64,000 bases of DNA, taken from the NCBI RefSeq assembly GCF_022846255.1, contig NZ_AP025682.1; one strand, 5' to 3'. The stretch comes from Escherichia coli (GTDB lineage: Bacteria > Pseudomonadota > Gammaproteobacteria > Enterobacterales > Enterobacteriaceae). How positions within the stretch are numbered: position 1 is the stretch's first letter; each line of letters opens with the position of its first letter. Made by a program: the position numbers and the translations under genes. This document shows, one piece after another, positions 14,265 to 34,425 of the stretch. Below the pieces are notes generated by a model. The model searched no databases and was not told the DNA's origin. It was given only the letters and a program-made list of their open reading frames with translations.

Positions 14265-15668
14265 TCAGGCCTTTGCTTCGTTGAAGCGCAGTAAACGGAA
14301 ACCTGTAGAAGCATAGATCAACGCAAATATCATCGAGCAGAAACAGAATACACAGTACGGCAAGTAACTAAACGTCGGCACGCCTAGTGTTGTCGCCATA
14401 TACAATCCGGCAGCTGACCACGGAATAATTGGCGCGCTCATGGTGCCAAAATCTTCCAGCGTTCGGGCTAAGACTAACGGTGATAAATTAAGATCTTCGA
14501 ATTTCTTCATCATCAATTCAGATATAACAATCTTATTCAAACCATCAGAACCGGTAAGTAAGTTAATGATGATCGCTAAAACACCGCTTGCCAGAATAGC
14601 GCCAAAGGCACTTTTTATTTTGTTTGCCGCACTTTGTAATGTGACATCCATCATTCCTGTTCCCGTCAGGATGCCAGCAAACATCATGGCGCAGATAATA
14701 AATGACAGGAATCCGCCCTGATTATTCAGGCCGCCTTGTTCAAGCAGTTCTTTCACAGAAGGTAACAGCGTCGTTGAATCAGTGATCATCGTCAGACGGA
14801 AACCACTCATTGTGGCCTTAATACCTTCGGCCAGCGGGAAACCTTGATACAGCCATCCAACCAATACGGCCACGAACGCACTGCTTAATAATGCCGGTAC
14901 TGTAGGCAAACGCAAAAAGGTAAAGCACAGAACAATAAGCATAGGCAGTAGCGGTAACAGACCAAACTTATATAACTCTTTGAGCTGTACCAGCATCTGC
15001 ATGCTTTCTGGTGAAATAGAGCCCGTAGAAGTATGAATCATTCCCAGCCAGGTAAAAAACAGCAGGCTAATAATCGTTGATGGGATGGTCGTCCAGAGTA
15101 GATATTTAATCAGATCATAAAGTTTAGTTTTGGTTACCGCTGAAGTCAGGTTAGTGGTATCACTTAACGGTGAAAGTTTGTCGCCAAAATAAGCCCCGGT
15201 AACAATGGCTGCCGCCAGAATTGGAAGATCGGCATGTAAGCCGGAACCGATGCCCATTAATGCAACACCAATAGAAGCGACAGATCCCCATGATGCCCCG
15301 GAAACATAGGACAATACTGCGTTCAGAAAAAACGCTATGGCATAAAGCCATGCGGGCGCAACCAGTAACATACCGTAATAAACCAGCATCGGCAGTGTAC
15401 CTGCATAGCTCCATGTCGCGACCATAAAGCCAACGAAAATAACGATAAGTACTGGTGCCATCACCGCCGAAATCTTATCGATAATAAACCCCTGGATTTC
15501 ATCCCAGGTATATTTCAGCTTAGCCATTGCAATAATGCAGGAAAACGCCGCTGAAATTAATAAACAGACGCTGGCAGGCCAGCCCATAACACCGATGCCA
15601 ACAACCAACACGATCATCATAAAAATGATCGGTGTAAGCGCGACATAAAAACTGGGTTTTTCTCTCAT
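14265..15668 (-). CDS. NhaC-family transporter (Na+/H+ antiporter or organic-acid antiporter superfamily)
   Basis: 467-aa polytopic membrane protein; 14-nt gap after the FAD oxidoreductase gene upstream on the same strand. Confidence 0.7.
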   Translation of the reverse strand: MREKPSFYVALTPIIFMMIVLVVGIGVMGWPASVCLLISAAFSCIIAMAKLKYTWDEIQGFIIDKISAVMAPVLIVIFVGFMVATWSYAGTLPMLVYYGMLLVAPAWLYAIAFFLNAVLSYVSGASWGSVASIGVALMGIGSGLHADLPILAAAIVTGAYFGDKLSPLSDTTNLTSAVTKTKLYDLIKYLLWTTIPSTIISLLFFTWLGMIHTSTGSISPESMQMLVQLKELYKFGLLPLLPMLIVLCFTFLRLPTVPALLSSAFVAVLVGWLYQGFPLAEGIKATMSGFRLTMITDSTTLLPSVKELLEQGGLNNQGGFLSFIICAMMFAGILTGTGMMDVTLQSAANKIKSAFGAILASGVLAIIINLLTGSDGLNKIVISELMMKKFEDLNLSPLVLARTLEDFGTMSAPIIPWSAAGLYMATTLGVPTFSYLPYCVFCFCSMIFALIYASTGFRLLRFNEAKA

Positions 15669-15682
15669 AACTTTATTCCCTG

Positions 15683-17053
15683 TTAAAAGACTTTTACGCC
15701 ATTTTGCTGTAAGCGTTCCTGTACCGTCTGAATATCTACCTGTGAAACGGTAGTGTTATTTTTAATGGCAATAGCAGCGGCAGTCCCTGCACCTTCTCCA
15801 GTGACAATACAACACCCCATATTACGGATTGTCGCGTAGGCGAAATTATCTGCATCGATTGCCCGTCCGCAAACCAACAGGTTTTCAACTTGCTGCGGAA
15901 TCATTACGCCATAAGGGATTTGAAAATAGTTCGCTTCAAGAGGTAATTTAAGATGACCATTTCCATCTATAAACTCAGGGAATACCCCTATTGAATCCGC
16001 ATGACGTCCCTCATTACAAATATCATTTTCAGTTAATTGTGTTCGCCCGAGAATATGTCTTGATTCCCTTGTTCCCACCGTCATACCGAAGTTTTTTAAT
16101 TGTGCCTGTTCAAATCCTGGCTGGAATTGACGCAACGCTTCTATCGCCTGCATGGCTTGTTTGCGGCCCTCTATTTCGGCACGCGTCAGGTCAAAAACAT
16201 CTGTACAATCAACGGCAGGGATGCTGACAACGTTCAAGTAATTCGCATCACCATACTCGGTGACCGTACTCCAGGAACCGCCTAATGTCACATCTTCAGG
16301 AATAATTCCTGCCGCCTTTCCTTTCGCAAAGACTTTACCCAGATAAGGGCTAAACATATCGCGACAAGATTCATGAACATCATAAGACCAGTTTTTATTT
16401 TCTTCATCCGCCCCCCAGTCTCCATATTTAGGTTCCGTGCTCTTAATATTTTGCATGAACGCGTTTTTATTTATATTTGCGCAACTAAAAACGGTTGTCA
16501 TACACATTAGCTCTTCGCGTTCACGCTTAATAAATGGTGCTCCGGCAAACCATGCAATATCAGCATCGCCAGTACAGTCAATAATGACATTTGCCAAAAT
16601 AGCCTGACGACCAGATTTACTCTCTGTTATTACGCCGAGTAAATTATTGCCCTGCTTGATAACATCAACGGCGGTAATGTGTAGTACGCGGCGCACACCT
16701 GCCTGTTCAAGCATTGCATCCGCAACCAGTTTGAAACGCTCGGCGTTAATAGCCTGACTATTCGATTGCGGCTCAGGGCTGGACGCCCCCATTGATTTTG
16801 CCGTTTCTTCTATTTCGCGTGCCAGTCCACCTGACTCTACCGTATTTTCATGACGCCACCAGGCAATTGACTCGACGCCAGCCGTTGTCATCATTCCGCC
16901 AAAACAACCGAAACGTTCAATCAGCATAGTAGCTGCGCCTTCACGAGCGGCACTCATTGCTGCGGCAATACCCGATGGACCACCACCAACAACTAACACT
17001 TCCGTGGTTGCCAGCACAGGTATATTACGAGCGGGTTCCAGATAAAATTCCAT
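15683..17053 (-). CDS. FAD-dependent oxidoreductase, paralogue A
   Basis: N-terminal dinucleotide-binding motif VLVVGGGPSGIAAA; ATG at 17051-17053 with a ggaga SD; paralogous to the ORF at 26207..27601 (shared motifs GGxLTxxGVESxAWxRH, CTGDADIA, FQIPYG). Confidence 0.8.
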   Translation of the reverse strand: MEFYLEPARNIPVLATTEVLVVGGGPSGIAAAMSAAREGAATMLIERFGCFGGMMTTAGVESIAWWRHENTVESGGLAREIEETAKSMGASSPEPQSNSQAINAERFKLVADAMLEQAGVRRVLHITAVDVIKQGNNLLGVITESKSGRQAILANVIIDCTGDADIAWFAGAPFIKREREELMCMTTVFSCANINKNAFMQNIKSTEPKYGDWGADEENKNWSYDVHESCRDMFSPYLGKVFAKGKAAGIIPEDVTLGGSWSTVTEYGDANYLNVVSIPAVDCTDVFDLTRAEIEGRKQAMQAIEALRQFQPGFEQAQLKNFGMTVGTRESRHILGRTQLTENDICNEGRHADSIGVFPEFIDGNGHLKLPLEANYFQIPYGVMIPQQVENLLVCGRAIDADNFAYATIRNMGCCIVTGEGAGTAAAIAIKNNTTVSQVDIQTVQERLQQNGVKVF

Positions 17054-17339
17054 ACTTTATCTCCGTATTCAATAATTGAGTAAAACAATCCCCCGCGCTT
17101 ATATAAGCGCGTTGATATTTTTAATTATTAACAAGCAACATCATGCTAATACAGACATACAAGGAGATCATCTCTCTTTGCCTGTTTTTTATTATTTCAG
17201 GAGTGTAAACACATTTTCCGCCTCCCTGGCTAATAACCACATTGGCATTTATGGAGCACATCACAATATTTCAATACCATTAAAGCACTGCACCAAAGTG
17301 AAACACTGCGACATTAAAATTATTTCAATTTGAAAAGCA

Positions 17340-19289
17340 TCAATCTGCATGCTCAACATTTGGATAGAGATTATAGATTTTAAGTTTGCGCCATAATGTT
17401 GTACGACCAATTTTTAATACTTCAGCTGCTTTAGTTAGATTCCATTCGCAGACACGACATGTATGCTCAATAGCTTGCATCTCCAATTCTGCCAGTGAAG
17501 TAAGATGAGGGATATCATCGTCGCCACTACTGTTATTTTGTCGGATATCCAGAGGAATATTCTCTAACCCGAGGACAAGTCGATTGCAGTTAATAAATAC
17601 CTTCTCCATTCGATTTTTGAACTCGGAGATGTTCCCAGGCCAACGGTACTCAAGCAGAACTGAATTTGCGTCAGGCGTGATTGTCATTTTTTTTCGAGTG
17701 CGCTCCTGATACTTATCAATAATATCGTCAATCATTTGCTTGAGATCTTCACGACGTTTGCGCAATGGCGGAATTTCAATTTCATTCATGGAGATCTCAT
17801 AATATAGCTGTCGGCTAAAAGCCCCTTGTTGCACGTACTCACGTAAAGAACTACTGGTACATGTAATCAGGCGAAAGCGTACGGGGATCAAACGATGGCT
17901 GTCTGAGCGAGTAACAAGCCCCGTTTTCAATACTTTCAATAAAACACTCTGAACTTCCCCTGATAGATATTCGACTTTATCCAGATATAAGGTGCCATTA
18001 TGAGCCAGTTCAAATTTCGATGGCGAAGGGCCAACATCAGAGCCAAGAAGTTCGTGTAAGATATTTTCTGGTGATAGCATCTGACAATCTACAGAAATAA
18101 ATGGCCCATCACGTTGCTCGCTCTCATTATGTATTGCCATCGCCAAACTCAATTTTCCCACACCTTCTTCGCCATTGATCAAAATCGGAGAGATGGATTT
18201 AATTGCCCGGCGAGCGATAAGTAATACCTGCTTCATACCACCTGAAGCCGCATGTAAACTGTCAAAGGTAAAATTTGCATTAGTGCTTATTTGCTGTTGG
18301 GCTATTTTCCTGATTTTGTCTAATGGATGAAGAAAAAGCAAAAACGAACCATCGCTTAACGGGCGAAGGGTAACCATAAGTTCAATAAATTCGCCACGGC
18401 ATTCGAGGACAATTTGCTTTTGCGATAGTTTGTTTCGTTGTGTAATTGCCTCATTCAAAATCGGCGGAAATACGAATCCTTTTCGGATGTTCTGACCAAT
18501 TAAACTTTCTTTATCAATATTCAGTAATGTTTGTGCTTGAGAATTAACCATCGTAATTAAAGAATGACTATTCCAACAAATAAAACCGTCATCCATACAT
18601 TCAATCACAGCATTATGCTGGCAAAGTACTTTGTTTATTAACTTTTGTTCATTCTCAATATAGATATAATTAGCGATTTCTGTTGCACATGAATATGATG
18701 TTTTTAATTTAACAAGCTCGGCGGTGGTTTCAATTATACATACAATGTATCCATGTATATTACCATAATAATCAATGACCGGAGCTGCGCTCATCGCATA
18801 ACAATGTAGCTGTTCACTAAAATGTTCTGCTCCTTCCAGTTGTGTATATAAATTTGTTTCCCGACAAAGACTATATACATTGGTTCCAATGCCATCTTCG
18901 GCCCATGACATACCAGATTCAATTCCTAACTCTCGCAATTGACTGGAATAATCGCCTGCTGCATTCAACGATAGAACCCAGCCGTGTGGGTCAATGATCA
19001 AAAATGCCAACCGGTCGTCACCAGCCAGGGTGAAATGGTCTTCAACAACTCTTTGTGAAATTCTAATAAACTCTTCGTTACGAGAAAAAATCGTCTGCAA
19101 TGTTTGCCCGGAAGCTTTGACAGGCGTGTTCCAGTGGCGAGGGTCACAATGCTTGAGACATTTTTGCCATGACCTCAGCATCACATGATTAGTCGAATTT
19201 GTCGCGACCCAACCATGCTTAACAAACATTTTCCATTTATTTTTTAGATCATTATGATACGACTCTTTATTCATTATAATAATATCCAT
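17340..19289 (-). CDS. DhaR-type transcriptional activator (sensory N-terminal region + AAA+ domain + C-terminal HTH) lacking the GAFTGA sigma-54 contact motif
   Basis: AAA+ Walker A GEEGVGK, ...HNESEQRDGPFISVDC..., C-terminal Fis-type HTH (IGRTTLWRKLK). The usual GAFTGA position reads GSDVGPSPSKFE, as in DhaR-like regulators that act with sigma-70. Confidence 0.8.
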   Translation of the reverse strand: MDIIIMNKESYHNDLKNKWKMFVKHGWVATNSTNHVMLRSWQKCLKHCDPRHWNTPVKASGQTLQTIFSRNEEFIRISQRVVEDHFTLAGDDRLAFLIIDPHGWVLSLNAAGDYSSQLRELGIESGMSWAEDGIGTNVYSLCRETNLYTQLEGAEHFSEQLHCYAMSAAPVIDYYGNIHGYIVCIIETTAELVKLKTSYSCATEIANYIYIENEQKLINKVLCQHNAVIECMDDGFICWNSHSLITMVNSQAQTLLNIDKESLIGQNIRKGFVFPPILNEAITQRNKLSQKQIVLECRGEFIELMVTLRPLSDGSFLLFLHPLDKIRKIAQQQISTNANFTFDSLHAASGGMKQVLLIARRAIKSISPILINGEEGVGKLSLAMAIHNESEQRDGPFISVDCQMLSPENILHELLGSDVGPSPSKFELAHNGTLYLDKVEYLSGEVQSVLLKVLKTGLVTRSDSHRLIPVRFRLITCTSSSLREYVQQGAFSRQLYYEISMNEIEIPPLRKRREDLKQMIDDIIDKYQERTRKKMTITPDANSVLLEYRWPGNISEFKNRMEKVFINCNRLVLGLENIPLDIRQNNSSGDDDIPHLTSLAELEMQAIEHTCRVCEWNLTKAAEVLKIGRTTLWRKLKIYNLYPNVEHAD

Positions 19290-19667
19290 TCAAGTCATTT
19301 TCAGAACTTGTATCAGAATGCTATGCCAGTAAGCTTGATCAAACGCAATAATATCTAGCCTGGATCATTACAAAAACAGACCTTATCAACAATGTAATCA
19401 CACATACATTAGAAATAATAACCGTTAAAGCAATAAAAAACGAATGATACATTAGATAAATTTTAAAACTGCCAACAACATCTGAAATCTTTGCGTTTGA
19501 TATTTATAATTATTCAAACTGAAACAACACAGGCATACGAGTTGTTTCACTGTGAAACAGTGCAGCGAAATTTGTTCTGCCCTTTTATTTCCTCAAAGAT
19601 ATTTCATCGTTAAATTCCAAAATTGACTGACTATTCAACTCAGCGTAAATATCAGGAGAAATAATGT

Positions 19668-21407
19668 ATGGCGAGGATGCGTGCAATCGAAGCTGCAGTA
19701 GAAATACTGAAAAAAGAAGGCATTAGCGTTGCTTTTGGTGTACCCGGCGCAGCAATAAACCCACTCTATGCCGCGATGAAAAAATCAGGCGGTATTGATC
19801 ATATTCTGGCCCGTCATGTTGAGGGCGCCTCGCATATGGCTGAAGGTTACACCCGCAGTCAGAATGGCAATATTGGCGTGTGTATTGGCACATCAGGCCC
19901 TGCGGGCACTGATATGATTACCGGGCTGTATTCTGCCTCTGCGGATTCCATTCCTATTCTCTGCATTACTGGTCAAGCTCCCGTAGGAAAACTTCATAAA
20001 GAAGATTTCCAGGCCGTCGATATTGAGGCTATCGCCACGCCAGTAACCAAAATGGCTCGCACAATTCTCGAAGCGGGTCAGTTGCCGGGGATATTCCAGA
20101 AAGCCTTCTGGGAAATGCGTTCAGGCCGCCCTGGCCCGGTTCTTTTAGATCTCCCTTTTGATGTTCAGATGACCGAAATTGAGTTTGATATCGATCTCTA
20201 TCAGCCACTCACTCCCTGGAAACCCCAGGCGACGCTGGCCCAGGCCGTACGCGCATTAGAAATGCTAAATGACGCCGAAAAGCCCGTCATCATCGCTGGC
20301 GGTGGCATTATTAACGCCGAAGCGAGTGAATTGTTGCGTGAGTTTGTCGAGTTAACTGGCGTTCCCGTCATTCAAACCTTACGCGGTTGGGGCGCTTTAT
20401 CAGACGATCACCCCCTAATGATTGGTCGCATGGGATGTCAGGCGGGTCATCGCTATGGTAACGCCAGTTATCTGGCCTCAGATTTTGTTTTTGGTATCGG
20501 TAACCGTTGGGCAAACCGCCATACCGGAGCCATTGAGACCTACACCGAAGGCCGCAAATTCATTCATGTTGATATCGAACCTGCACAAATTGGCCGGATA
20601 TTTGCGCCGGATCTGGGCATTGTTTCTGATGCTGAAAGCGCCTTAACGCTATTTATTCAGGTCGCCCGTGATATGAAGTCACGTGGAGAACTGAAAGACC
20701 GCAGTCGCTGGATTGCCGAATGTGCCGAGCGTAAACGCACAATGCTTCGTCGTTCAGACTTTGACTGCAATCCAATTAAACCGCAGCGCGTGTATCACGA
20801 AATGAATAAGGTTTTCGGACCGGAGACACGCTATATTTCGACAATTGGTCTGGCGCAAATCGCCGCAAACCAATTTTTACATGTTTACCGCCCACGCCAC
20901 TGGATTAATGCCTGTCAGGCTGGGCCGCTAGGCTGGACAATGCCCGCAGCACTGGGCGCGGTAAAAGCTGATCCATCTGTTCCCGTTGTGGCAATATCCG
21001 GTGATTACGATTTTCAGTTCTTGATTGAAGAATTAGCCGTCGGCGCACAATTTAATCTTCCGTATATCCATATTTTACTTAACAACGCTTATCTTGGTTT
21101 GATTCGTCAATCACAACGTGCATTTGATATTGATTATTGCGTTCAACTGTCATTTGAAAATATTAATGCTCCAGAAATTAATGGTTATGGCGTTGATCAT
21201 AAAGCTGTGGTTGAAGGATTAGGATGTAAAGCGATTCGCGTATTCGCATCACAGGATATTGCGCCTGCACTGCAAGAAGCCCAGCGTTTGCGTGACGAAT
21301 TTCACGTACCTGTTGTTGTGGAAATTATTACTGAACGCGTGACTAATATCGCTATGGGACCTGACATTAATAAAGTCACAGAATTTGAAGAAATTCTCGA
21401 TTTATAA
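19668..21407 (+). CDS. gcl: Glyoxylate carboligase-like thiamine-diphosphate enzyme
   Basis: 579-aa TPP enzyme whose N-terminal region (GVPGAAINP...[19 protein letters not shown]...[32 protein letters not shown]) closely resembles Gcl as I recall it; followed by hyi-, glxR- and glxK-like genes. The symbol denotes a paralogue, not necessarily the allantoin-regulon gcl. Confidence 0.75.
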
Positions 21408-21419
21408 GGAAACAGGATT

Positions 21420-22202
21420 ATGGCAAAGTTTGCAGCAAATTTATCTATGCTCTTTACCGAGTATCCATTTATTGAACGTTTTGCACAAGCAAGTCACGCA
21501 GGATTCCACGGCGTTGAGTATCTTTTCCCCTATGACTTTTCCGCAGATGAGTTGGTTTCGCAACTGCATCAACATAATCTGACGCAGGTTCTGTTTAATC
21601 TTCCTGCGGGTAACTGGCAAGAGGGTGAACGGGGTATTGCATGTCATCCTGGTCGGGCAAAAGAATTTCAGGAGGGCGTTTCCAGGGCAATAGAGTATGC
21701 ATTGGCCCTTAATTGTTCACAAGTTAATTGCCTTGCAGGAAAACATCCAGGTGGTTATTCGCATGAACAATGTCATGAAACACTGGTCGAAAATTTGCGC
21801 TATGCAGTAGATAAATTGGCTTCTCATGGCATAAAGTTAGTTCTGGAAGCCATTAATACAAAAGATATTCCCGGTTTTTTTGTTAACAACACCAGACAAG
21901 CTCTCAATATTATTCATGATGTAAATCATCCTGATTTTCGCTATCAATACGATATTTATCATATGCAAATCATGGAAGGGAATATTGCTACAACAATCAA
22001 AAACAACCTGAATAACATTGGACATATTCAATTAGCCGATAACCCTGGGCGTCATGAACCAGGGACGGGAGAAATTAATTACCCGTGGTTGTTAAATTAT
22101 ATAGACCAGATTGGTTATCAGGGATGGATTGGTTGCGAATATGTTCCATCTACGACAACGACTGAAAGTCTACGCTGGCTAAAAAACGAGACTCAATTTT
22201 AA
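21420..22202 (+). CDS. hyi: Hydroxypyruvate isomerase-like TIM-barrel protein
   Basis: 260 aa with N-terminal FAANLSMLFTEYPF and Hyi-like motifs (GEINYP, GWIGCEY); 12-nt gap after the gcl-like gene. Confidence 0.75.
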   Translation: MAKFAANLSMLFTEYPFIERFAQASHAGFHGVEYLFPYDFSADELVSQLHQHNLTQVLFNLPAGNWQEGERGIACHPGRAKEFQEGVSRAIEYALALNCSQVNCLAGKHPGGYSHEQCHETLVENLRYAVDKLASHGIKLVLEAINTKDIPGFFVNNTRQALNIIHDVNHPDFRYQYDIYHMQIMEGNIATTIKNNLNNIGHIQLADNPGRHEPGTGEINYPWLLNYIDQIGYQGWIGCEYVPSTTTTESLRWLKNETQF

Positions 22203-22219
22203 TCCCTGAGGTATTTATC

Positions 22220-23107
22220 ATGAATATTGGATTTATCGGCACCGGCATAATGGGTAAGCCGATGGCTTATAATTTACAACAAGCCGGACATACTCTTTAT
22301 TTTTCAGCGCATTTTGAACCTGCACCGCAAGAGCTTATTGGTGAACGTGGCATTGTTTGCTCTACACCGCGTGAAGTCGCGCAGGAGTGTGAGGTCATCA
22401 TCACCATGCTCCCTGATACCCCACATGTTGAGGATGTTCTTTTTCATCCCAACTATGGCGTAATACACGGTTTAAGCCACGGGAAAATTGTGATTGATAT
22501 GAGTTCAATTTCCCCGGTTGCCACCAAAGCATTTGCACAACGTATTATCGCGGGAGGCGCGGAATATATCGATGCGCCCGTCTCTGGCGGTGAAGTTGGC
22601 GCGAAAGCCGGGACGCTTTCCATTATGGTTGGCGGATGTGAAGAGGTTTATTTGCAGATCAAACCGATTCTGGAATTGATGGGTAAAAATATCACTCTGG
22701 TCGGTAACGTCGGTGATGGTCAAACGTGCAAAGTCGCTAACCAAATTATTGTTGCACTGAATATTGAAGCGGTGGCTGAAGCCCTGCTCTTTGCCAGTAA
22801 ATCAGGTGCCGATCCCGCCCGCGTACGTGAAGCGCTGATGGGAGGGTTTGCCTCCTCTCGCGTGCTGGAAGTTCATGGCGAACGGATGATTAAAGGAACA
22901 TTCGAACCCGGTTTTCGTATTAGTCTGCATCAAAAAGATCTGAATCTGGCGCTGGAGAATGCCCGCCTGTTGAATACCCCGCTTCCTAACACGGCGACGA
23001 CACAGCAGTTATTTAGCGCCTGCGCCGCGCTCGGTGGTAAAGAGTGGGATCATTCTGCGTTAATTCGGGCGCTTGAAACACAAGCCAATTTCACTATCCG
23101 TAAATAA
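22220..23107 (+). CDS. glxR: Tartronate semialdehyde reductase / 3-hydroxyisobutyrate dehydrogenase-family NAD(P) oxidoreductase
   Basis: N-terminal Rossmann motif GFIGTGIMG and conserved GDGQTCKVANQIIVALNIEAV...MGGFASSRVLEVHGERMIK block. Confidence 0.75.
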   Translation: MNIGFIGTGIMGKPMAYNLQQAGHTLYFSAHFEPAPQELIGERGIVCSTPREVAQECEVIITMLPDTPHVEDVLFHPNYGVIHGLSHGKIVIDMSSISPVATKAFAQRIIAGGAEYIDAPVSGGEVGAKAGTLSIMVGGCEEVYLQIKPILELMGKNITLVGNVGDGQTCKVANQIIVALNIEAVAEALLFASKSGADPARVREALMGGFASSRVLEVHGERMIKGTFEPGFRISLHQKDLNLALENARLLNTPLPNTATTQQLFSACAALGGKEWDHSALIRALETQANFTIRK

Positions 23108-23181
23108 TGAATTAAGGGAACCACCGGTTCCCTTCGTTCACTCATTGCCCTGCCCCATTCCCCTATTTTGAGAGACCTGCT

Positions 23182-24324
23182 ATGAAGATAGTTATCTCCC
23201 CCGACTCCTTTAAAGAATGCCTTCCTGCATGGAAAGTCGCCGAAGCGCTGGCAACCGGCTGGCGCAAGGTCCTGCCTGGCAGCCAACTGGTGTGTTTGCC
23301 CGTGGCTGATGGCGGCGAAGGCACGCTCGAAACACTCATTCATGCGACTGACGGTACGTTTTACACTAAAAAAGTCACCGGACCGCTTGGCGAATCAATA
23401 CATGCGCAATACGGTATTTTAGGCAACCAAACCACCGCAGTGATAGAACTGGCACAAGCTTCAGGGCTGGAACTGGTTTCTCCTGTCCAGCGTTCTCCCC
23501 TTTATACGACGTCGTTTGGCACTGGCGAACTTATTCTCGCCGCCCTGGAACACAATATTGATACCGTTATTCTATGCCTGGGTGGCAGTGCTACAAATGA
23601 TGGCGGTATTGGGTTGATGTCGGCACTTGGCGCATCGTTTACAGACGCCGAAGGGCTATCAGTCTCTGTTAATGGGATGGGGCTGGCGGCAATTCACCAC
23701 ATTGACTTACAGCACCTCGATCCACGATTGAAAAATGTGAAATTTATTGCGGCCTGTGATGTCACCAACCCACTAACCGGCGATAACGGCGCGACCCGGG
23801 TTTTTGCTCAACAAAAAGGGGCCAGTGCTAACGACCTTGAGCAACTGGAACAGGGAATGAAAAACTATGCCCGTTGCATCTACCGTTGTTGTGGTAAAGA
23901 CGTCGATACGATACCCGGTTCTGGGGCGGCTGGCGGCGTTGGCGCGGCCTTGATGGCTTTTCTCGATGCTCGCTTACAACCGGGTATTTCGCTCGTGCTG
24001 GAAGCGATTCAATATACCCAACATTTAAAATACGCAGCATTGGCCATTGTCGGTGAAGGGAAATTAGATAGTCAGAGCCTGAATGGCAAAGCGCCCGTAG
24101 GCGCAGCCAAAGTTGCCCAGATGATGGGCGTTCCGGTTATCGCAATTGCCGGGTATATCGATGATCAACTTGATCTGAATGAGTTACGCCAGTGTGGAAT
24201 AGAAGCCTGTTTTTCCGTCGTCAATGGTCCTTGTGATTTCCCCACCGCGCTGAGTCAGGGAGAAAATAATTTAATTCGTCTTGGGGAAAATCTGGCGGGA
24301 TATTTTCGTGCGATCCTGAGTTAA
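23182..24324 (+). CDS. glxK: Glycerate kinase
   Basis: 380-aa glycerate kinase-family protein (MKIVISPDSFKE...LPVADGGEGT...); last gene of the gcl-hyi-glxR-glxK operon. Confidence 0.75.
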   Translation: MKIVISPDSFKECLPAWKVAEALATGWRKVLPGSQLVCLPVADGGEGTLETLIHATDGTFYTKKVTGPLGESIHAQYGILGNQTTAVIELAQASGLELVSPVQRSPLYTTSFGTGELILAALEHNIDTVILCLGGSATNDGGIGLMSALGASFTDAEGLSVSVNGMGLAAIHHIDLQHLDPRLKNVKFIAACDVTNPLTGDNGATRVFAQQKGASANDLEQLEQGMKNYARCIYRCCGKDVDTIPGSGAAGGVGAALMAFLDARLQPGISLVLEAIQYTQHLKYAALAIVGEGKLDSQSLNGKAPVGAAKVAQMMGVPVIAIAGYIDDQLDLNELRQCGIEACFSVVNGPCDFPTALSQGENNLIRLGENLAGYFRAILS

Positions 24325-25929: not shown

Positions 25930-26154
25930 TCAATGAGGACGAATATTTCGCCGTTCCTTTTTCATGTGTTGCAATTGTCGGGAAAGGCGTAAAGAAAAAA
26001 AGGCGCAAATAAGTGAAAGAGCCGCAATACAATACAGAGCTAAACCACGCTGATGCTGTTGCAGCATGAACAGGAATATCCCCAAAAAGAGGCCGCAGAG
26101 AACTGTGGTTATCCAGTAATTGGCACTTAAGTGCTCCAGGTCATCATCCCTCAT
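25930..26154 (-). CDS. Small 2-TM membrane protein (74 aa) immediately upstream of the BCCT transporter gene
   Basis: ATG at 26152-26154 (reverse strand) preceded by aggaga; stop 23 nt before the BCCT start; two hydrophobic helices. Codon-by-codon reading places this ORF on the minus strand although the supplied track labels it +. Confidence 0.5.
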   Translation of the reverse strand: MRDDDLEHLSANYWITTVLCGLFLGIFLFMLQQHQRGLALYCIAALSLICAFFSLRLSRQLQHMKKERRNIRPH

Positions 26155-26206: not shown

Positions 26207-27601
26207 TTATGCCAGACGTACGCCCTGCTGTTGCAGCGTGTTTTGCAAATCAGGGATAGCAACCTGACGCACGGTGCAATTTTGCTGTAGCGAAACCACG
26301 GCGGCAGTACCTGCGGCCTCACCGGTAACGGCACAACACATCATGTTACGCATAGAAGTATGTGCAACTACGCCTGCGGAAATACAGCGACCGGCGACCA
26401 AAAGGTTCTCCACTTTTTGCGGCACCAGACAACCATAAGGGATCTGAAAGAAACGCCCGGTCGTTGGCAAAATGAGATAACCGGAACCATCAATAAATTC
26501 CGGGAAAATCCCTACACTGTCCGAACAACGCCCCTGATTAAGGACGTAATCATCAGCAATACGTATTTCCCCCTCAATAAGCCGTGATTCACGCGTCCCC
26601 AGCGTGGCACCAAAATTGCGTAACCGTACATTTTCAAAGCCCGGAACATAATGGCGTAGAGCGTCAATTGCCCATAATGCTTGCTGCCTTCCGGCAATCT
26701 CAGCTTTGGTTAAATCGAAGACATCGGTACAGTCAAAACCAAAGGCGTACACCATATTCATCTGGAAAGCCTCACCGCTTTCAGAAAAGGTCGACCAGGT
26801 TCCGGCAATCGCCTGGGCGTCACCTGGAATCACACCATCCTGTTGCGCGCGGGTAAAAATATCCTCCATATACGGGCTAAACATCGGGTCTTCTTTACCC
26901 GTGGTTTGAATCGTCCAGTTTTTGCCCCAATCCGCGTAGGTCGGCTTAAGTTCTTCCGCAACAAAACGGTTAAAGCGTGCCACATCAACACCTGCGCAAC
27001 TGAACATCACGGTGACGCCCATCAGTTGGTCCTTGCTCCGTTTCGTCCAGGGCGCGCCTGCACGAGCGGCAATATCAGCATCCCCCGTGCAATCGACGAT
27101 TCTTTTCGCCAGAATTGCCCCTCGACCTGATTTATTCTCGACGATAACACCGCATAACGTATTCCCGTCCTTGATCACGTCCACAACCCAGGAGTGATAT
27201 AACGGCTCAACGCCAGATTCCGTAATCATCTGATCGGCGACAACTTTAAATCCTTCAGTATCTATAACTTCGCTAATTGACTGAGGTTCTGGTCGTGTGA
27301 AGCCCAATGCTCGCGCGCGGCCTTCATATTCACGACAAATCCCTTCACAATCTTCCGTCCCCGGATGGCGATACCAGGCAAAACTTTCCACACCAACCTG
27401 CGTCAATACGCCGCCTAGTGAGCCGTAACGCTCAACAATCATGGTTCTGGCACCTAGCCGCCCCGCCGCTATCGCCGCCGTTAATCCTGCCGGACCGCCC
27501 CCGATAACCAGAACGTCCGTTTGTGCAATGACTGGCGTTTGCCGTGCACTTTCATTAATCATGTCCACCATTGGTTCCCCCGTCAGATTCAGGATGCGCA
27601 A
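26207..27601 (-). CDS. FAD-dependent oxidoreductase, paralogue B
   Basis: N-terminal VLVIGGGPAGLTAA FAD-binding motif; paralogue of 15683..17053. The start may be one of the downstream in-frame ATGs, because 27589..27601 overlaps the MFS gene. Confidence 0.8.
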   Translation of the reverse strand: MRILNLTGEPMVDMINESARQTPVIAQTDVLVIGGGPAGLTAAIAAGRLGARTMIVERYGSLGGVLTQVGVESFAWYRHPGTEDCEGICREYEGRARALGFTRPEPQSISEVIDTEGFKVVADQMITESGVEPLYHSWVVDVIKDGNTLCGVIVENKSGRGAILAKRIVDCTGDADIAARAGAPWTKRSKDQLMGVTVMFSCAGVDVARFNRFVAEELKPTYADWGKNWTIQTTGKEDPMFSPYMEDIFTRAQQDGVIPGDAQAIAGTWSTFSESGEAFQMNMVYAFGFDCTDVFDLTKAEIAGRQQALWAIDALRHYVPGFENVRLRNFGATLGTRESRLIEGEIRIADDYVLNQGRCSDSVGIFPEFIDGSGYLILPTTGRFFQIPYGCLVPQKVENLLVAGRCISAGVVAHTSMRNMMCCAVTGEAAGTAAVVSLQQNCTVRQVAIPDLQNTLQQQGVRLA

Positions 27602-28922: not shown

Positions 28923-30005
28923 TTAAAGTCCCAAATGATGTGCAGTTAAAATTGCACAAAGAACGTCCTGCGCTGTTACTACGAATGGCATATTATGGAT
29001 AGTTTCCCCTTCAGCAGTCGCGGCTTTAGCCACTGCCCGTAATTTATCTTTATTAATTTCCTTCACGCCTAACATATGAAGATTTGTCGGCAAGCCAACG
29101 CTATGGCAGAAATTGAGTACGGTTTCAATTTCCTCCTGTGGTGCGTTTTCCAGTACGAGCTGTACCAGGACGCCAAATGCCACTTTTTCACCGTGGTAGC
29201 AATGATGGCATTCCTCCAGTTGCGTCATGCCGTTATGAATGGCATGAGCTGCCGCCAGGCCGCTACTTTCAAATCCAATGCCGCTAAGATAGGTATTAGC
29301 TTCGATAATATTCTCTACCGCTTTGGTGCTAACACCTTGTTCAACCGCGACTTTTGCCTTATAGCCATCTTCCAGTAGCGTGGTATAACAGAGTCGGGCA
29401 ATAGCCAGTGCCGCCAGTGTCGACGCCCCACCTGCCATTGTGGCTTTTCCTGACGCCTGATTGGCTCTCGCCTCAAACCAGGTTGACAATGCATCTCCCA
29501 TACCGGCCACCAGCAGACGCACTGGCGCGGCTGAAATGACGCCAGTATCCATAATCACCATATCCGGGTTTTTCGGGAAAAACAGATATTCGCTAAACTG
29601 ACCTTCCGGGGTGTAAATTACCGCCAGAGAACTGGTTGGCGCATCTGTGGAAGCAATTGTCGGCACCACCACCACCGGAATTTTTTGGTAATACGCTACG
29701 GCTTTTGCCGTATCCAACGTTTTACCGCCGCCAATACCAATAACGACATTATATTTACGCTGATTAAATTTCTCACGAATTCGAGAAATTTCATTTTGCG
29801 AGCATTCACCACAAAAGATATCAAAATCTGCAGTAATATTTTCTTTTGCAAAGCTCTGGCTTACTCTGTCACCCACCAGACCGGTCACAAATTCATCTGC
29901 AATAATTAATGGTTCTGTTCCCAAACTCGCCGCATATGTAGCAATATTATCCAGAGAACCATTTCCCTGGATATATTTAGCCGGACTTATAATAATCTTA
30001 TCCAT
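28923..30005 (-). CDS. gldA: Glycerol dehydrogenase-like iron-containing/group III polyol dehydrogenase
   Basis: 360 aa with GldA/DhaD-family motifs (GGGKTLDTAKA, metal-binding His cluster); divergent from dhaKLM. Symbol denotes a paralogue. Confidence 0.75.
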   Translation of the reverse strand: MDKIIISPAKYIQGNGSLDNIATYAASLGTEPLIIADEFVTGLVGDRVSQSFAKENITADFDIFCGECSQNEISRIREKFNQRKYNVVIGIGGGKTLDTAKAVAYYQKIPVVVVPTIASTDAPTSSLAVIYTPEGQFSEYLFFPKNPDMVIMDTGVISAAPVRLLVAGMGDALSTWFEARANQASGKATMAGGASTLAALAIARLCYTTLLEDGYKAKVAVEQGVSTKAVENIIEANTYLSGIGFESSGLAAAHAIHNGMTQLEECHHCYHGEKVAFGVLVQLVLENAPQEEIETVLNFCHSVGLPTNLHMLGVKEINKDKLRAVAKAATAEGETIHNMPFVVTAQDVLCAILTAHHLGL

Positions 30006-30324
30006 ATCATTCCTCGCGTAACTTGTTTTGCTTCACTGTTAACCTACTCGTTGCATCCAGTAGCGGCAAACATTTCATTCGCGAAAAATTATGTTTTATG
30101 ATCGCGCTGTAAAAAACATCATCTGCAGATGATAATAAAAAACACTTTTCATGCCTTAATCACAATATATCAATATCCACGCTGGTCCCATTTCATTTTG
30201 GAACAACACAATGAATTAACTGTTTCATTATGAATCTTATTATCGTGCGATTTGTTTTATTGCGGCTGGAGAATTAATCTCGCAAGCATATTTAGCGCGA
30301 TTTACGTAATTTATCAGAACAGGA

Positions 30325-31395
30325 ATGACTATGAAGAAATTAATTAACCAGATTGATTCTGTTGTCACAGAACAAATGGAAGGACTCATCGCCACCTGGC
30401 CACACCTGCAGGCAAATTACGCGCCCCGATATGTGTGGTGCAAACAAACCGATAATGCAGTGGCGCTGATTTCAGGCGGCGGCTCAGGCCATGAACCACT
30501 GCATGCAGGTTTTGTCGGTATGGGAATGTTAACCGGTGCATGTCCTGGTGAAATCTTCACATCGCCCACACCAGATCAAATGATCGAATGTGCCAAAGCG
30601 GTTGATAATGGTTCTGGCGTTCTGTTTTTCATCAAAAATTACACTGGCGATATTCTGAATTTCGAAACGGCAGTCGAGATGTTACACGAAGAAGGCATCG
30701 CCGTTGGGACCGTCATTATTGATGATGATGTAGCGGTAAAAGATAGCCTGTATACAGCCGGACGTCGCGGTGTTGCGGGTACAGTTTTTGTTGAAAAGAT
30801 TGTCGGTGCGGCTGCACTTCAGGGATATAACCTGGGGCAGTGCGAGCAACTTGGCAAAGATGTTAACAATGCCACCCGTTCTTTTGGCATCGCACTGTCA
30901 GCCTGTACGGTTCCCGCCGCGGGAAAACCCTCATTTGAACTGGCTGATAATGAAATCGAATTTGGTGTCGGGATCCACGGTGAACCCGGCATTGAACGCC
31001 GCACTTTGCAAGATCTGAACACTTTAATCGACAGCGTGATAGCGCAATTACTGGATAATACCCCCTGGCGACGCACATTACGCCATTGGGATCGCCATGC
31101 GGGGGGATGGATTGACGCATCATCAATGAATGAGTCATTCGATCAAAATGCCGAATATATTGTGTTAATTAACGGACTTGGCAGCACGCCTGAATCAGAG
31201 TTATATGGTGTAGCCAGGGTATTTATGTGCGCCGCACAGCGCCAGGGAATTAAAATTAGCCGCCAGTTGGTCGGTAATTATTGTACATCATTAGATATGG
31301 CCGGATTTTCCATTAGCCTGCTGAAATGTACCCCAGAGTTTTTGCAACTTTGGGATGCCCCGGTCAATACGCCAGCGCTTCGTTGGGGATGTTAA
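30325..31395 (+). CDS. dhaK: Dihydroxyacetone kinase, substrate-binding subunit DhaK
   Basis: 356-aa DhaK-family protein (GGGSGHEP motif). Confidence 0.8.
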   Translation: MTMKKLINQIDSVVTEQMEGLIATWPHLQANYAPRYVWCKQTDNAVALISGGGSGHEPLHAGFVGMGMLTGACPGEIFTSPTPDQMIECAKAVDNGSGVLFFIKNYTGDILNFETAVEMLHEEGIAVGTVIIDDDVAVKDSLYTAGRRGVAGTVFVEKIVGAAALQGYNLGQCEQLGKDVNNATRSFGIALSACTVPAAGKPSFELADNEIEFGVGIHGEPGIERRTLQDLNTLIDSVIAQLLDNTPWRRTLRHWDRHAGGWIDASSMNESFDQNAEYIVLINGLGSTPESELYGVARVFMCAAQRQGIKISRQLVGNYCTSLDMAGFSISLLKCTPEFLQLWDAPVNTPALRWGC

Positions 31396-31407
31396 TAAGG
31401 ACATTAT

Positions 31408-32040
31408 ATGAAAATTCAAAACAAACATGTTATTGCCTGGCTGGAGAGTTGTGCTGCACATCTTACTGAACAACAAGATTTTCTAACCGCACTTGACAGA
31501 GATATTGGTGATGCCGACCACGGCCTCAATATGAATCGTGGTTTCAGTGCCGTGAAAGCGACGTTGCCCGACATTGAACGTCAGCATATTGGCAATATCC
31601 TTAAAAATACTGGCATGAAACTACTTTCCAGCGTTGGCGGTGCCAGTGGTCCTCTTTACGGCACATTATTTATTCGCGCTTCTGCGGCAGTGGGAGCCAG
31701 AACAGAATTAAGTCTGGAAGAGTGGCTGGCGTGTCTGGAAGAAGGGATTGCAGGCGTTATCGCACGAGGAAAAGCAGAACAAGGGGATAAAACACTGTGT
31801 GATGTCTGGGTTCCAGTCCTCCACGAAGCCAAAAAGAACCTGCAAGCCGGAATGTCGCCTTCCCTTCTGCTGAATACGATGGTGCAAGATGCGGCAACAG
31901 CCGTCGATAACACCATCAATATGCAGGCGAAAAAAGGACGTGCCAGTTATCTCGGCGCTCGCAGTGTGGGCCATCAGGATCCAGGCGCGACCTCCTCCTG
32001 GCTGATGATTAAGGCTATGCAGGAAGGATTCGCGGGATAA
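31408..32040 (+). CDS. dhaL: Dihydroxyacetone kinase, ADP-binding subunit DhaL
   Basis: 210-aa DhaL-family protein (DRDIGDADHG motif). Confidence 0.8.
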   Translation: MKIQNKHVIAWLESCAAHLTEQQDFLTALDRDIGDADHGLNMNRGFSAVKATLPDIERQHIGNILKNTGMKLLSSVGGASGPLYGTLFIRASAAVGARTELSLEEWLACLEEGIAGVIARGKAEQGDKTLCDVWVPVLHEAKKNLQAGMSPSLLLNTMVQDAATAVDNTINMQAKKGRASYLGARSVGHQDPGATSSWLMIKAMQEGFAG

Positions 32041-32043
32041 ATT

Positions 32044-34425
32044 ATGGTTGCCATTGTTATTGTTTCTCATAGTCTACGTCTCGCCCAGGGGATTGAGGAA
32101 TTAGCACTACAGATGTCTGGAGGGGACGTTCCTCTGGCCATTGCTGCAGGTATTGATGATCCGCAACATCCGATTGGCACTGATGCTATTGCCATTATGT
32201 CTGCGATTGAATCGGTCTGGTCACCGGATGGCGTTCTGGTACTCATGGATATGGGCAGTGCGCTGCTTAGTACCGAGATGGCGCTGGAGCTGCTTTCTGA
32301 AGAGCAAAGAAGTGCAATTTATCTGCTCGCCGCCCCTGTAGTGGAAGGTGCCATGTCAGCGGTAACGTCTGCCGCAGCGGGGCTTTCGGTGACGGAGATT
32401 ATCGCTGAAGTGGATCTTGCGCTGTGCGCTAAACAGCAGCAGCTCATGCCATCCCCGCCTGCAGGCGAGGTTATTCCAGCAATATCACCAGTCAATCATT
32501 CCGGTGAATGGCAAACTTTTTGCTGGACGATATGTAATCCCCACGGCATTCATGCTCGTCCGGCAGCCAGCATCCTGAAAGTATCAGCACAATATTCGGC
32601 AAACATTATCGTCATCAAAGGCGATAAACGCGCCAGCACCCGCAGTCTCAACGAACTGGCAATGCTGGGCGTCCGCTGTGGCGATGAAATCATCTTCCAG
32701 GCCGAAGGCACCGATGCCAGTGACGCTCTCAAGGCAATTGAAACGTTGGCGAAAAATCATTTTGGTGAAGCTCACCTGCTCGCTTCTTCAGAGATTCCGC
32801 TAACGGAAACGCCGGTGGTCAGCGCCCCTGTCGATGGCGCAATATCAGGCTTGTCAGTACAAAATGGTATCGCTATTGGTCCTGTTAAATGGTTTACCTG
32901 CGAACGACCAGAAATTACGCAGCGCACCGTCGATTCTCCGCAAGAAGAGCTGTCGCGAATCGAGTCTGCTATCGACATTGTTGTTTGTGAACTTGCCGAT
33001 AAAGCGGCAGGCCCTGAAGGCGATATTTTTGCCGCCCATAAAATGATGCTTGAAGATCCAGAGATTAACCGGCAATTACAGCAACGTCTGGCAAAGGGCA
33101 AACAGGCGGAATTCGCATGGTTAGAAGTCATGCAGGCATTAGCAGAGCAATATTGTCAGGCGGAAACACTGTATTTACGTGAACGCGAGGCAGATATCCG
33201 TGACCTTACACGTCAGGTACTGAACCAGCTTTGCGGGGTAAGTGAACAACACTTTATCACTACCGCGCCCTGCATTTTGTTAGCCAACGATCTGTTGCCA
33301 TCACAGATAACCAGCCTGAATAAAGCACACATTCTTGGCATTTGTCTTCATAACGGCGGAACAACTTCACATACAGCGATCCTTGCCAGAGCAATGGGAA
33401 TCCCCGCTATTGTGAAAGCGGCGATTACCCCGCAAAACGTCCGCGATAACGACACGGTCATTCTTGATGGTGAAACAGGCCGTTTGTGGCTACAGCCGGA
33501 TGAGGTCACCCGCCTGGATTTACTGCAACGCGCCGAAGCATGGCGGCAACAAAGGGATCGTCAGTTAGCTGATGCCATGCTGCCCGCTGTCACGCAAGGT
33601 GGGCGTAAAATCAGCGTGCTGGCGAATATTGGTGATCTGCAAGACATTGATGCCGCACTGTCTCACGGCGCTGAGGGCGTTGGCTTGCTGCGTACCGAGT
33701 TTTTATTCCACGATTCTGCGACATTACCTGATGAGGAAGAGCAGTTCCGTGTGTATTGTTCTGTCGCCCGAGTTTTTGGCGACAAACCAGTCACGATCCG
33801 GACTCTGGACATTGGTGGTGATAAACCGCTACCTTCATACCCTTTACCCACAGAGGACAACCCCTTCCTGGGACTTCGAGGTATCCGGTTGTGTCTGGCG
33901 CATCCACAAATATTTATTCCTCAATTGCGCGCACTTATCAGGGCCGGGAAAGAATACCCAACGTTGCAAATTATGCTGCCGATGGTTTCAACGCTCGAGG
34001 AGGTCAGGGCCGTCAAAACATTGATACATGCTCAGGCAAAACTGCTGGAACTTACTGCAGAAAATCTTCCGGCGCTGGGAATTATGATTGAGGTTCCTGC
34101 CGCAGTCATGATTGCAGACAAATTAGCCAGTGAAGTCGATTTCTTTTCCATCGGCACCAACGATCTGACGCAATATATTATGGCGGCAGACAGAGGAAAT
34201 AGCACCGTCGCGAAACTGGTCGATTATTGTAATGACGCGGTGATTAACGCTATTGCTATGGTGTGTCAGGCCGGACGTAATAATGAAATTCCGGTCAGTA
34301 TGTGCGGCGAAATGGCTGGAGATATCCAGCAAACAGCACGACTGCTCACCATGGGGATTGATAAGCTCAGTGCCAGTCCATCCCGGCTTCCGGCCTTGAA
34401 AGCAGCAATCAGAATCTCCCACTAA
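32044..34425 (+). CDS. dhaM: Multiphosphoryl transfer protein: DhaM-like EIIA + HPr + full-length PTS Enzyme I fusion
   Basis: N-terminal DhaM/EIIA-Man-like segment (IVSHS...GIDDPQHPIGTDA...MDMGSALLS), HPr-like segment (GIHARPAA), and a complete EI domain. From memory, K-12 DhaM carries a truncated EI domain. Confidence 0.75.
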   Translation: MVAIVIVSHSLRLAQGIEELALQMSGGDVPLAIAAGIDDPQHPIGTDAIAIMSAIESVWSPDGVLVLMDMGSALLSTEMALELLSEEQRSAIYLLAAPVVEGAMSAVTSAAAGLSVTEIIAEVDLALCAKQQQLMPSPPAGEVIPAISPVNHSGEWQTFCWTICNPHGIHARPAASILKVSAQYSANIIVIKGDKRASTRSLNELAMLGVRCGDEIIFQAEGTDASDALKAIETLAKNHFGEAHLLASSEIPLTETPVVSAPVDGAISGLSVQNGIAIGPVKWFTCERPEITQRTVDSPQEELSRIESAIDIVVCELADKAAGPEGDIFAAHKMMLEDPEINRQLQQRLAKGKQAEFAWLEVMQALAEQYCQAETLYLREREADIRDLTRQVLNQLCGVSEQHFITTAPCILLANDLLPSQITSLNKAHILGICLHNGGTTSHTAILARAMGIPAIVKAAITPQNVRDNDTVILDGETGRLWLQPDEVTRLDLLQRAEAWRQQRDRQLADAMLPAVTQGGRKISVLANIGDLQDIDAALSHGAEGVGLLRTEFLFHDSATLPDEEEQFRVYCSVARVFGDKPVTIRTLDIGGDKPLPSYPLPTEDNPFLGLRGIRLCLAHPQIFIPQLRALIRAGKEYPTLQIMLPMVSTLEEVRAVKTLIHAQAKLLELTAENLPALGIMIEVPAAVMIADKLASEVDFFSIGTNDLTQYIMAADRGNSTVAKLVDYCNDAVINAIAMVCQAGRNNEIPVSMCGEMAGDIQQTARLLTMGIDKLSASPSRLPALKAAIRISH

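Follow-up and report, generated by a model that had tools for sequence, protein, structure and literature searches.

IbeR of the Escherichia coli GimA island: a DhaR-family regulator without sigma-54 contact, with predicted paired operators at the gcl, dhaK and ibeA promoters

The closest described relatives of the regulator considered here are proteins related to the enhancer-binding proteins of bacteria that work at promoters of the sigma-70 type. DhaR of Escherichia coli K-12 (b1201), the activator of dhaKLM, has no sigma-54 contact motif and acts at a sigma-70 promoter (PMC10084136, PMC3162934), and TyrR, an enhancer-binding protein descendant which is also active at sigma-70 promoters, has an AAA+ core without GAFTGA (PMC3162934). 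In this work we analyse a gene of the DhaR family, ibeR, which occupies positions 17340-19289 on the minus strand of a 64,000-nucleotide stretch of E. coli DNA (contig NZ_AP025682.1 of assembly GCF_022846255.1; further called the window). It is a part of GimA, an island published as an insert of about 20 kb with 46% GC, flanked by yjiD and yjiE and containing the operons ptnIPKC, cglDTEC, gcxKRCI and ibeRAT (PMC2878320). GimA is both a marker of and a contributor to virulence in neonatal-meningitis and avian pathogenic E. coli, and its regulation was still called 'elusive' in 2026 (PMC13128420). Deletion mutants of ibeR and their phenotypes have been published for the avian pathogenic strain DE205B, and a role of the gene was also reported for strain RS218 (PMC4359115); the literature casts IbeR, the same gene at the same position, as an RpoS-like regulator of stress response and virulence, and the papers that could be searched report neither an operator nor a direct target nor a mechanism of sensing for it.

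The window is a piece of the chromosome of extraintestinal pathogenic E. coli and its regulator is ibeR of GimA, a gene already known together with its neighbourhood. Of 5426 complete E. coli genomes, 246 contain the segment 17000-20000 with at least 95% identity according to megablast, every copy being chromosomal; the locus is about 99.9% identical in DNA to GimA-positive strains, and the matching genomes are annotated with dhaR, gcl and 'putative intracellular survival FAD-dependent oxidoreductase IbeA'. The low-GC insert (46.2%) is about 20 kb long, carries the ibeA, gcx, cgl and ptn genes and is bounded by hypT (yjiE) and iraD (yjiD), which is the site of the published island. In strain NC101 the order is hypT, then nhaC-ibeA-dhaR divergent from gcl-hyi-glxR-glxK, a BCCT transporter, an FAD-oxidoreductase, an MFS protein, gldA divergent from dhaK-dhaL-ptsP, and iraD. 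As IbeR of GimA is published and the RefSeq product name in the window is already DhaR, the gene is not new, and what we add is a testable regulon prediction for a known gene of a known family and not a new type of system.

From the evidence discussed below, we consider it rather probable that IbeR is a DhaR-family regulator of sigma-70 promoters which controls the gcl, dhaK and ibeA promoters of GimA through paired operators and, by analogy, senses DhaK and DhaL. In the mechanism that we suggest, a descendant of enhancer-binding proteins would have lost the loop that contacts sigma-54 together with the arginine finger and the glutamate of Walker B and would now act at sigma-70 promoters, binding pairs of 17-bp palindromes, set three helical turns apart, by means of the family-wide recognition helix. 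The three pairs of the island, upstream of gcl-hyi-glxR-glxK, of dhaK-dhaL-ptsP (with the divergent gldA) and of ibeA-ibeT, would make IbeR a local master regulator of GimA rather than a sigma-like global factor, and its GAF-PAS part may respond to the state of the dihydroxyacetone kinase encoded on the island: in analogy with K-12 DhaR, DhaK would be the co-repressor and ADP-loaded DhaL the co-activator, their binding being mutually exclusive.

Membership in the DhaR family is directly established. The longest open reading frame encodes 649 residues (the RefSeq start, at 19274, lies five codons downstream and gives 644), and the NCBIfam DhaR equivalog NF008485 matches residues 15-647 with 985.8 bits against a cut-off of 551. 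Pfam recognises GAF (weak), PAS, Sigma54_activat, AAA_lid_14 and HTH_8 domains, so that the GAF-PAS-AAA+-HTH order is the one of K-12 DhaR, to which IbeR is 33% identical over essentially the full length, and the N-terminal 300 residues or so match the DhaR sensing-domain structures 4lrx, 4lry and 4lrz (phmmer E = 5e-40 to 4lrx_C, residues 36-334). The losses in the AAA+ part are equally plain. When aligned by MAFFT with PspF, NtrC and TyrR, IbeR and K-12 DhaR alike lack the GAFTGA loop, a deletion common to 37 of 37 aligned family members, and its place is taken by a degenerate L1 loop, GSDVGPSPSKFE (residues 416-427; 18009-18044, minus strand), the L1 region being four residues shorter than in K-12 DhaR. 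The Walker B region LYLDKVE (17970-17990, minus strand) has a lysine instead of the catalytic glutamate of the canonical DE, comparable to LFLEK of K-12 DhaR and in contrast to LFLDE of PspF and NtrC, while TyrR keeps the DE and also differs from IbeR in its ACT/PAS amino-acid sensing and in its HTH and operator. The arginine-finger segment FR(E/A)DL..(D/H)RL has become FSRQLYYEI, and the finger is lost. Because of these three changes, the AAA+ module looks, as far as its residues tell, catalytically dead and unable to contact sigma-54.

The Sigma54_activat domain of Pfam and the words 'sigma-54-dependent' in some database names of IbeR relatives could be taken as signs of a genuine sigma-54-dependent enhancer-binding protein. 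Opposed to this are not only the losses just described but also the promoters themselves: the GG-N10-GC core has no occurrence on either strand of the three relevant gaps (ibeR to gcl, ibeR to ibeA, gldA to dhaK), and TGGCAC-N5-TTGCW has no match with up to two mismatches in the gap between ibeR and gcl. The missing GAFTGA, Walker B glutamate, arginine finger and -24/-12 element together rule this candidate out, and we give it practically no chance. The initial annotation of the locus, made from the letters of the DNA, had described an AAA+ domain with a replaced GAFTGA loop and a DhaR-type homologue independent of sigma-54, and both descriptions hold; a canonical GAFTGA together with a sigma-54 promoter upstream of the gcl-like gene, which would have spoken for the opposite, was looked for and not found.

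The part of the protein that reads DNA is close to that of DhaR. The Fis-type HTH recognition helix IGRTTLWRKLK (17379-17411, minus strand) is nearly identical to IGRTTLWRKMK of K-12 DhaR, IGRTTLWRK being the same in both, and the pattern [IV][GS]R[TA]TLWRK is found in 37 of 37 family regulators; a shared DNA specificity of IbeR and K-12 DhaR is therefore expected. In K-12 the gap between dhaK and dhaR contains the palindrome TGTTTCATAGTGAAACA (TGTTTCA-TAG-TGAAACA), and a second, degenerate copy lies at a distance of 31 bp; a full-text literature search for this operator sequence returned no match. We define the operator as the 17-bp palindrome YGTTYCA-N3-TGRAACR in pairs 31-34 bp apart, derived by family comparison (a phylogenetic footprint) rather than from a footprint in the literature. 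With the strict box TGTTTCA-N3-TGAAACA the sites of Citrobacter and Vibrio were not recovered; the degenerate form was drawn from the family afterwards and then re-tested on the controls.

Three such pairs are seen in GimA. The first, O1 (19510-19559), lies in the gap between ibeR and gcl and consists of the distal box TTATTCAAACTGAAACA (19510-19526) and the perfect proximal box TGTTTCACTGTGAAACA (19543-19559; TGTTTCA-CTG-TGAAACA), 33 bp apart. The centre of the proximal box precedes the gcl ATG by 117 bp, so that the gcl promoter of GimA carries a paired operator of the K-12 dhaK type at the same distance from the ATG (in K-12 about 115-125 bp upstream of the first target gene); O1 is the best-matching site of the island and is unchanged in the most divergent E. 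coli copy. The pair O2 (30189-30237) is in the gap between gldA and dhaK, with the boxes CATTTCATTTTGGAACA (30189-30205) and TGTTTCATTATGAATCT (30221-30237), and O3 (17289-17337) directly follows the ibeR stop, with boxes at 17289-17305 and 17321-17337, about 240-280 bp upstream of the ibeA ATG; in both the boxes are 32 bp apart. With the degenerate pattern and up to two mismatches, the whole window has eight single matches, and six of the eight form exactly these three pairs, all in promoter gaps of GimA. No pair was obtained with this pattern in 200 first-order Markov simulations of 64 kb, and the strict pattern gave a simulated mean of 0.005 pairs per 64 kb. Real E. coli DNA used as a control, 194 kb in total (150 kb of K-12 around tnaA, katE and osmC, and 44 kb of the window outside GimA), had no pairs with up to three mismatches, in contrast to three within the 20 kb of GimA. 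The occurrence of the operator and its statistics are thus direct observations, to which its conservation can be added, and occupancy by IbeR is what we predict from them.

Besides K-12, about 25 other species have paired boxes ahead of dhaK, and in Pantoea, Serratia, Vibrio, Salinivibrio, Photobacterium, Moritella and Psychromonas they stand 31-34 bp apart in the gap between dhaK and gldA or between dhaK and dhaR, mostly with 0 mismatches. An equivalent of O2 is present in two Citrobacter loci (L005, L019) and in about 20 loci of Vibrionaceae. The O1 pair is conserved in at least four lineages (L003, L005, L006, L018), with constant arms and a variable 3-bp spacer (CTG, CCT, TAG), and the O3 pair in L003, L006 and L018. 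In relatives with 62-81% identity, namely L006, [Enterobacter] lignolyticus, Pluralibacter and Citrobacter sp. NCU1, gcl and the regulator are likewise divergent, and in all of them and in E. coli 114-117 bp lie between the centre of the proximal box and the gcl ATG. The locus is reduced to a minimum in Citrobacter, with gldA divergent from dhaK-dhaL-ptsP, followed by glxK-glxR-hyi-gcl divergent from the regulator, without ibeA or ibeT. In three Serratia species (L009/L030, L034, L048) gcl-hyi-glxR is co-directional with the regulator. One pair precedes gcl, and the DNA directly upstream of the regulator has none; another comes after the regulator and before the genes of a BCCT transporter and an IbeA-like oxidoreductase. 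Due to this arrangement, the boxes can be said to be linked to gcl rather than to the promoter of the regulator. In Vibrio mediterranei and two other Vibrio loci the regulator adjoins gcl as well, with weaker pairs. On a neighbour-joining tree the gcl-linked regulators are not monophyletic, and all of them fall in a Vibrio-type clade, apart from the enterobacterial core DhaR. A DhaR-type pair was also noticed on a Serratia metagenome contig (L015, 9758-9805), upstream of the gene for the glycerol dehydratase large subunit; the same operator therefore appears to serve the 1,3-propanediol branch of the dha regulon.

The core gcl operon of K-12 is under AllR control and makes an instructive comparison. 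It encodes the paralogous gcl-hyi-glxR...glxK pathway, Gcl being about 69% identical over the first 428 residues, and its gcl promoter has a perfect AllR palindrome, TTGGAAAAATTTTCCAA. The AllR operator is absent from the whole window at up to three mismatches, and the gcl promoter of GimA has DhaR-type boxes instead.

The island possesses a dihydroxyacetone system of its own. Its module, gldA on the minus strand divergent from dhaK-dhaL-ptsP (dhaM) on the plus strand, spans 28923-34425 and is of the Vibrio type; dhaK and dhaL presumably encode the sensor partners of IbeR. The identity of the GimA proteins to those of Vibrio is 46% for the regulator, 64% for DhaK, 66% for DhaL and 52% for DhaM, versus 33%, 60%, 54% and 40%, respectively, for the K-12 core proteins. 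Vibrionaceae are the closest non-enterobacterial lineage (44-46% for the regulator, 63-66% for DhaK and DhaL); there the regulator is convergent with dhaK-dhaL-dhaM, gldA is divergent, a box pair sits in the gap between dhaK and gldA, and DhaM is likewise long, with Enzyme I, although unlike GimA most of these loci have no gcl operon or ibeA/ibeT beside the regulator. This common likeness of the regulator, DhaK, DhaL and DhaM means that GimA holds a complete second dha system with IbeR as its regulator. The gene annotated as ptsP (32044-34425) is in fact a long DhaM, where EIIA-Man, HPr and a complete Enzyme I are fused as in Vibrionaceae, and because of this the island kinase may draw on phosphoenolpyruvate without the general proteins of the phosphotransferase system. 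The catalytic motifs of the kinase are intact (GGGSGHEP and GIHGEPG in DhaK, GDADHGLNMNRGF in DhaL).

IbeR differs from K-12 DhaR in belonging to a separate clade, in its distance from dhaK and in a predicted regulon of three promoters including those of gcl and ibeA. It would be logical to suggest, from the order and kinship of the genes, that the glyoxylate and ibeA promoters were added to a dha regulon, which was expanded, and that the regulator was not moved away from dha. A genetic linkage to dhaK-dhaL-dhaM does exist, on the same island at 11 kb (dhaK-dhaL-ptsP begins at 30325) and in direct adjacency in Citrobacter L005 and L019 and in Vibrio. The IbeR clade shares 78% of the 46 sensing-domain positions that hardly vary among regulators adjacent to dhaK, its changes being mostly conservative, and sensing through DhaK and DhaL may, by this analogy, be preserved in IbeR.

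Several features described by the initial annotation are borne out at this level. The regulator is indeed divergent from gcl-hyi-glxR-glxK (19668-24324, plus strand; the published gcx operon, all assigned by NCBIfam equivalogs and a predicted target of IbeR), the distance to dhaKLM given there as about 10 kb is 11 kb by measurement, and the AT-rich gap of 378 bp (19290-19667; 31.5% GC versus 46.2% for the island), where it expected an operator, contains the predicted pair O1. Its proposal that a DhaR-type regulator has come to control a glyoxylate module gains support at the DNA level from the gcl operator pair and the conservation of the latter in other genera. The wording that the regulator stands with gcl 'rather than' with dhaKLM was misleading, since regulator, DhaK, DhaL and long DhaM represent one Vibrio-type lineage and the dhaK promoter of the island is paired too.

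A number of points weigh against the three-promoter regulon and the DhaK/DhaL signal that we favour. The operator is a prediction from phylogenetic footprinting, and the boxes at dhaK and ibeA are degenerate, each having 1-3 mismatches. As 5385 of 5426 E. coli genomes contain the core dhaR-dhaK, and the core DhaR has the recognition helix of IbeR, the sequence alone cannot assign the boxes to IbeR over DhaR. The phenotypes published for IbeR (stress resistance and an RpoS-like role) reach further than a local regulon would (PMC4359115). In Vibrio mediterranei, Vibrio sp. UBA2441 and Vibrio sp. 99-8-1 (L029, L033, L035) no dhaK or dhaL is found within 10 kb of the regulator linked to gcl-hyi-glxR, and the IbeR clade has the most diverged sensing domain, which leaves room for a different signal. 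Promoter geometry does not separate activation from repression, and the sole experimental datum, the rise of ibeA in a delta-ibeR mutant, points to repression at the ibeA site. As a separate observation, two of the three Vibrio genomes have a second regulator paralogue elsewhere (L026, L047).

Among the other explanations, it is unlikely in our opinion that IbeR is just the plain cognate DhaR of dhaK-dhaL-ptsP and gldA, with the boxes between ibeR and gcl used only for autoregulation and gcl controlled otherwise. The closest non-enterobacterial relatives, in Vibrio and Photobacterium, do adjoin dhaKLM and have their sole box pair in the gap between dhaK and gldA, K-12 DhaR has one operator region for dhaK and for itself, and it reportedly represses its own gene. 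Nevertheless, the gcl ATG is 109-158 bp away from O1 and that of ibeR over 220 bp, it is the gcl site that matches best in the island, no AllR box is present, and the Serratia arrangement also argues against boxes serving autoregulation only. We find it still a little harder to accept that these sites are mainly occupied by the core DhaR, or by mixed oligomers of DhaR and IbeR, with IbeR being redundant or modulatory. The identical recognition helix and the core dhaR-dhaK in 99% of E. coli genomes would permit it, yet the operator arrangement is conserved where an IbeR-type protein is the neighbouring regulator, the island has a complete dha set of its own, and deletion of ibeR alone alters ibeA expression.

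No better prospects are given by us to the reading of IbeR as a global stationary-phase and stress regulator of RpoS type that directly controls katE, osmC, sodC, tnaA, ompA and other genes. It is built on the phenotypes and expression changes of the delta-ibeR mutant of DE205B and on the role in RS218 (PMC4359115), but IbeR is a DNA-binding homologue of DhaR and not a sigma factor, all three pairs of the window are inside GimA, and no paired boxes are seen in the K-12 control of 150 kb around tnaA, katE and osmC, the promoters of tnaC, katE and osmC included, so the RpoS-like effects are probably indirect; metabolic knock-on effects can account for the pleiotropy.

Coming back to the paired operators and IbeR as their local regulator, a further step can be proposed, which we regard as possible and hold with clearly less confidence. 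IbeR might be a single switch of GimA that couples the glyoxylate-to-glycerate pathway and IbeA to the phosphorylation state of a second, self-contained dihydroxyacetone kinase of the Vibrio type, next to a core DhaR which shares its DNA specificity and has different sensor partners, the gcl-linked DhaR regulon being an old and recurrent module of Vibrionaceae, Serratia and Enterobacteriaceae. If true, it would explain the carbon-source-dependent invasion phenotype. If the three operators are real, a metabolic trigger-enzyme circuit would govern the expression of IbeA, and IbeR would exert its 'RpoS-like' effects indirectly. GimA-positive strains would then hold two DhaR paralogues with the same recognition helix, as the wide presence of the core dhaR-dhaK implies, and could be explored as a natural case of insulation or cross-talk between regulators of one DNA specificity. 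The knowledge of the protein family itself is not changed by this regulon prediction.

The third promoter deserves a closer look. The genes ibeA (15683-17053, minus strand; FAD-dependent oxidoreductase) and ibeT (14265-15668, minus strand; NhaC family) are predicted to be an IbeR target together (14265-17053). The initial annotation let the regulator head this operon, and while both genes do follow it, heading is doubtful, because the 286-bp gap between ibeR and ibeA has a conserved operator pair of its own. As O3 comes right after the ibeR stop, ibeA-ibeT probably has its own promoter under IbeR control. No minus-strand terminator between ibeR and ibeA was given by a terminator scan, and Rfam over 13000-36000 had no match, and so no riboswitch or leader. 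The up-regulation of ibeA in a non-polar delta-ibeR mutant (PMC4359115) fits direct local control, either by autorepression of ibeR with read-through or by repression at O3. A consensus sigma-70 scan found 13 promoter-like sites, with 9.2 expected, and the best of them (19482-19510) is not conserved in E. lignolyticus.

Some smaller elements accompany these promoters. A perfect 18-bp palindrome, CGCGCTTATATAAGCGCG (17094-17111), stands 41 bp upstream of the ibeA start codon, and L003 and L006 share a part of it (GCGCAT.TATTTGCG); a hairpin of the 5' untranslated region or a site of another regulator may be present here. The gap between ibeR and gcl also contains an 18-nt inverted repeat, ATCAAACGCAATAATATC and GAAATCTTTGCGTTTGAT, at 19338-19355 and 19484-19501, with arms 128 nt apart, and its ibeR-proximal copy (ATTATTGCGTTTGATCAA), which is strongly conserved in L003 and L006 and partly in Citrobacter, is a candidate for an ibeR promoter element or a second regulator site.

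Two observations concern other genes of the island. IbeA and CglE (26207-27571), the second FAD-dependent oxidoreductase of GimA, are paralogues with 51% identity, and genes similar to those of IbeA or CglE are also found together with gcl and the regulator in Serratia and Vibrio; this suggests a metabolic role for IbeA, the supposed invasin. Between the genes of the BCCT transporter and the FAD-oxidoreductase there is a conserved open reading frame for a small membrane protein of 74 residues (MRDDDLEHLSANYWITTVLCG...; 25930-26154, minus strand), which is not annotated in RefSeq NC101 and is called a gene in [Enterobacter] lignolyticus and in L006.

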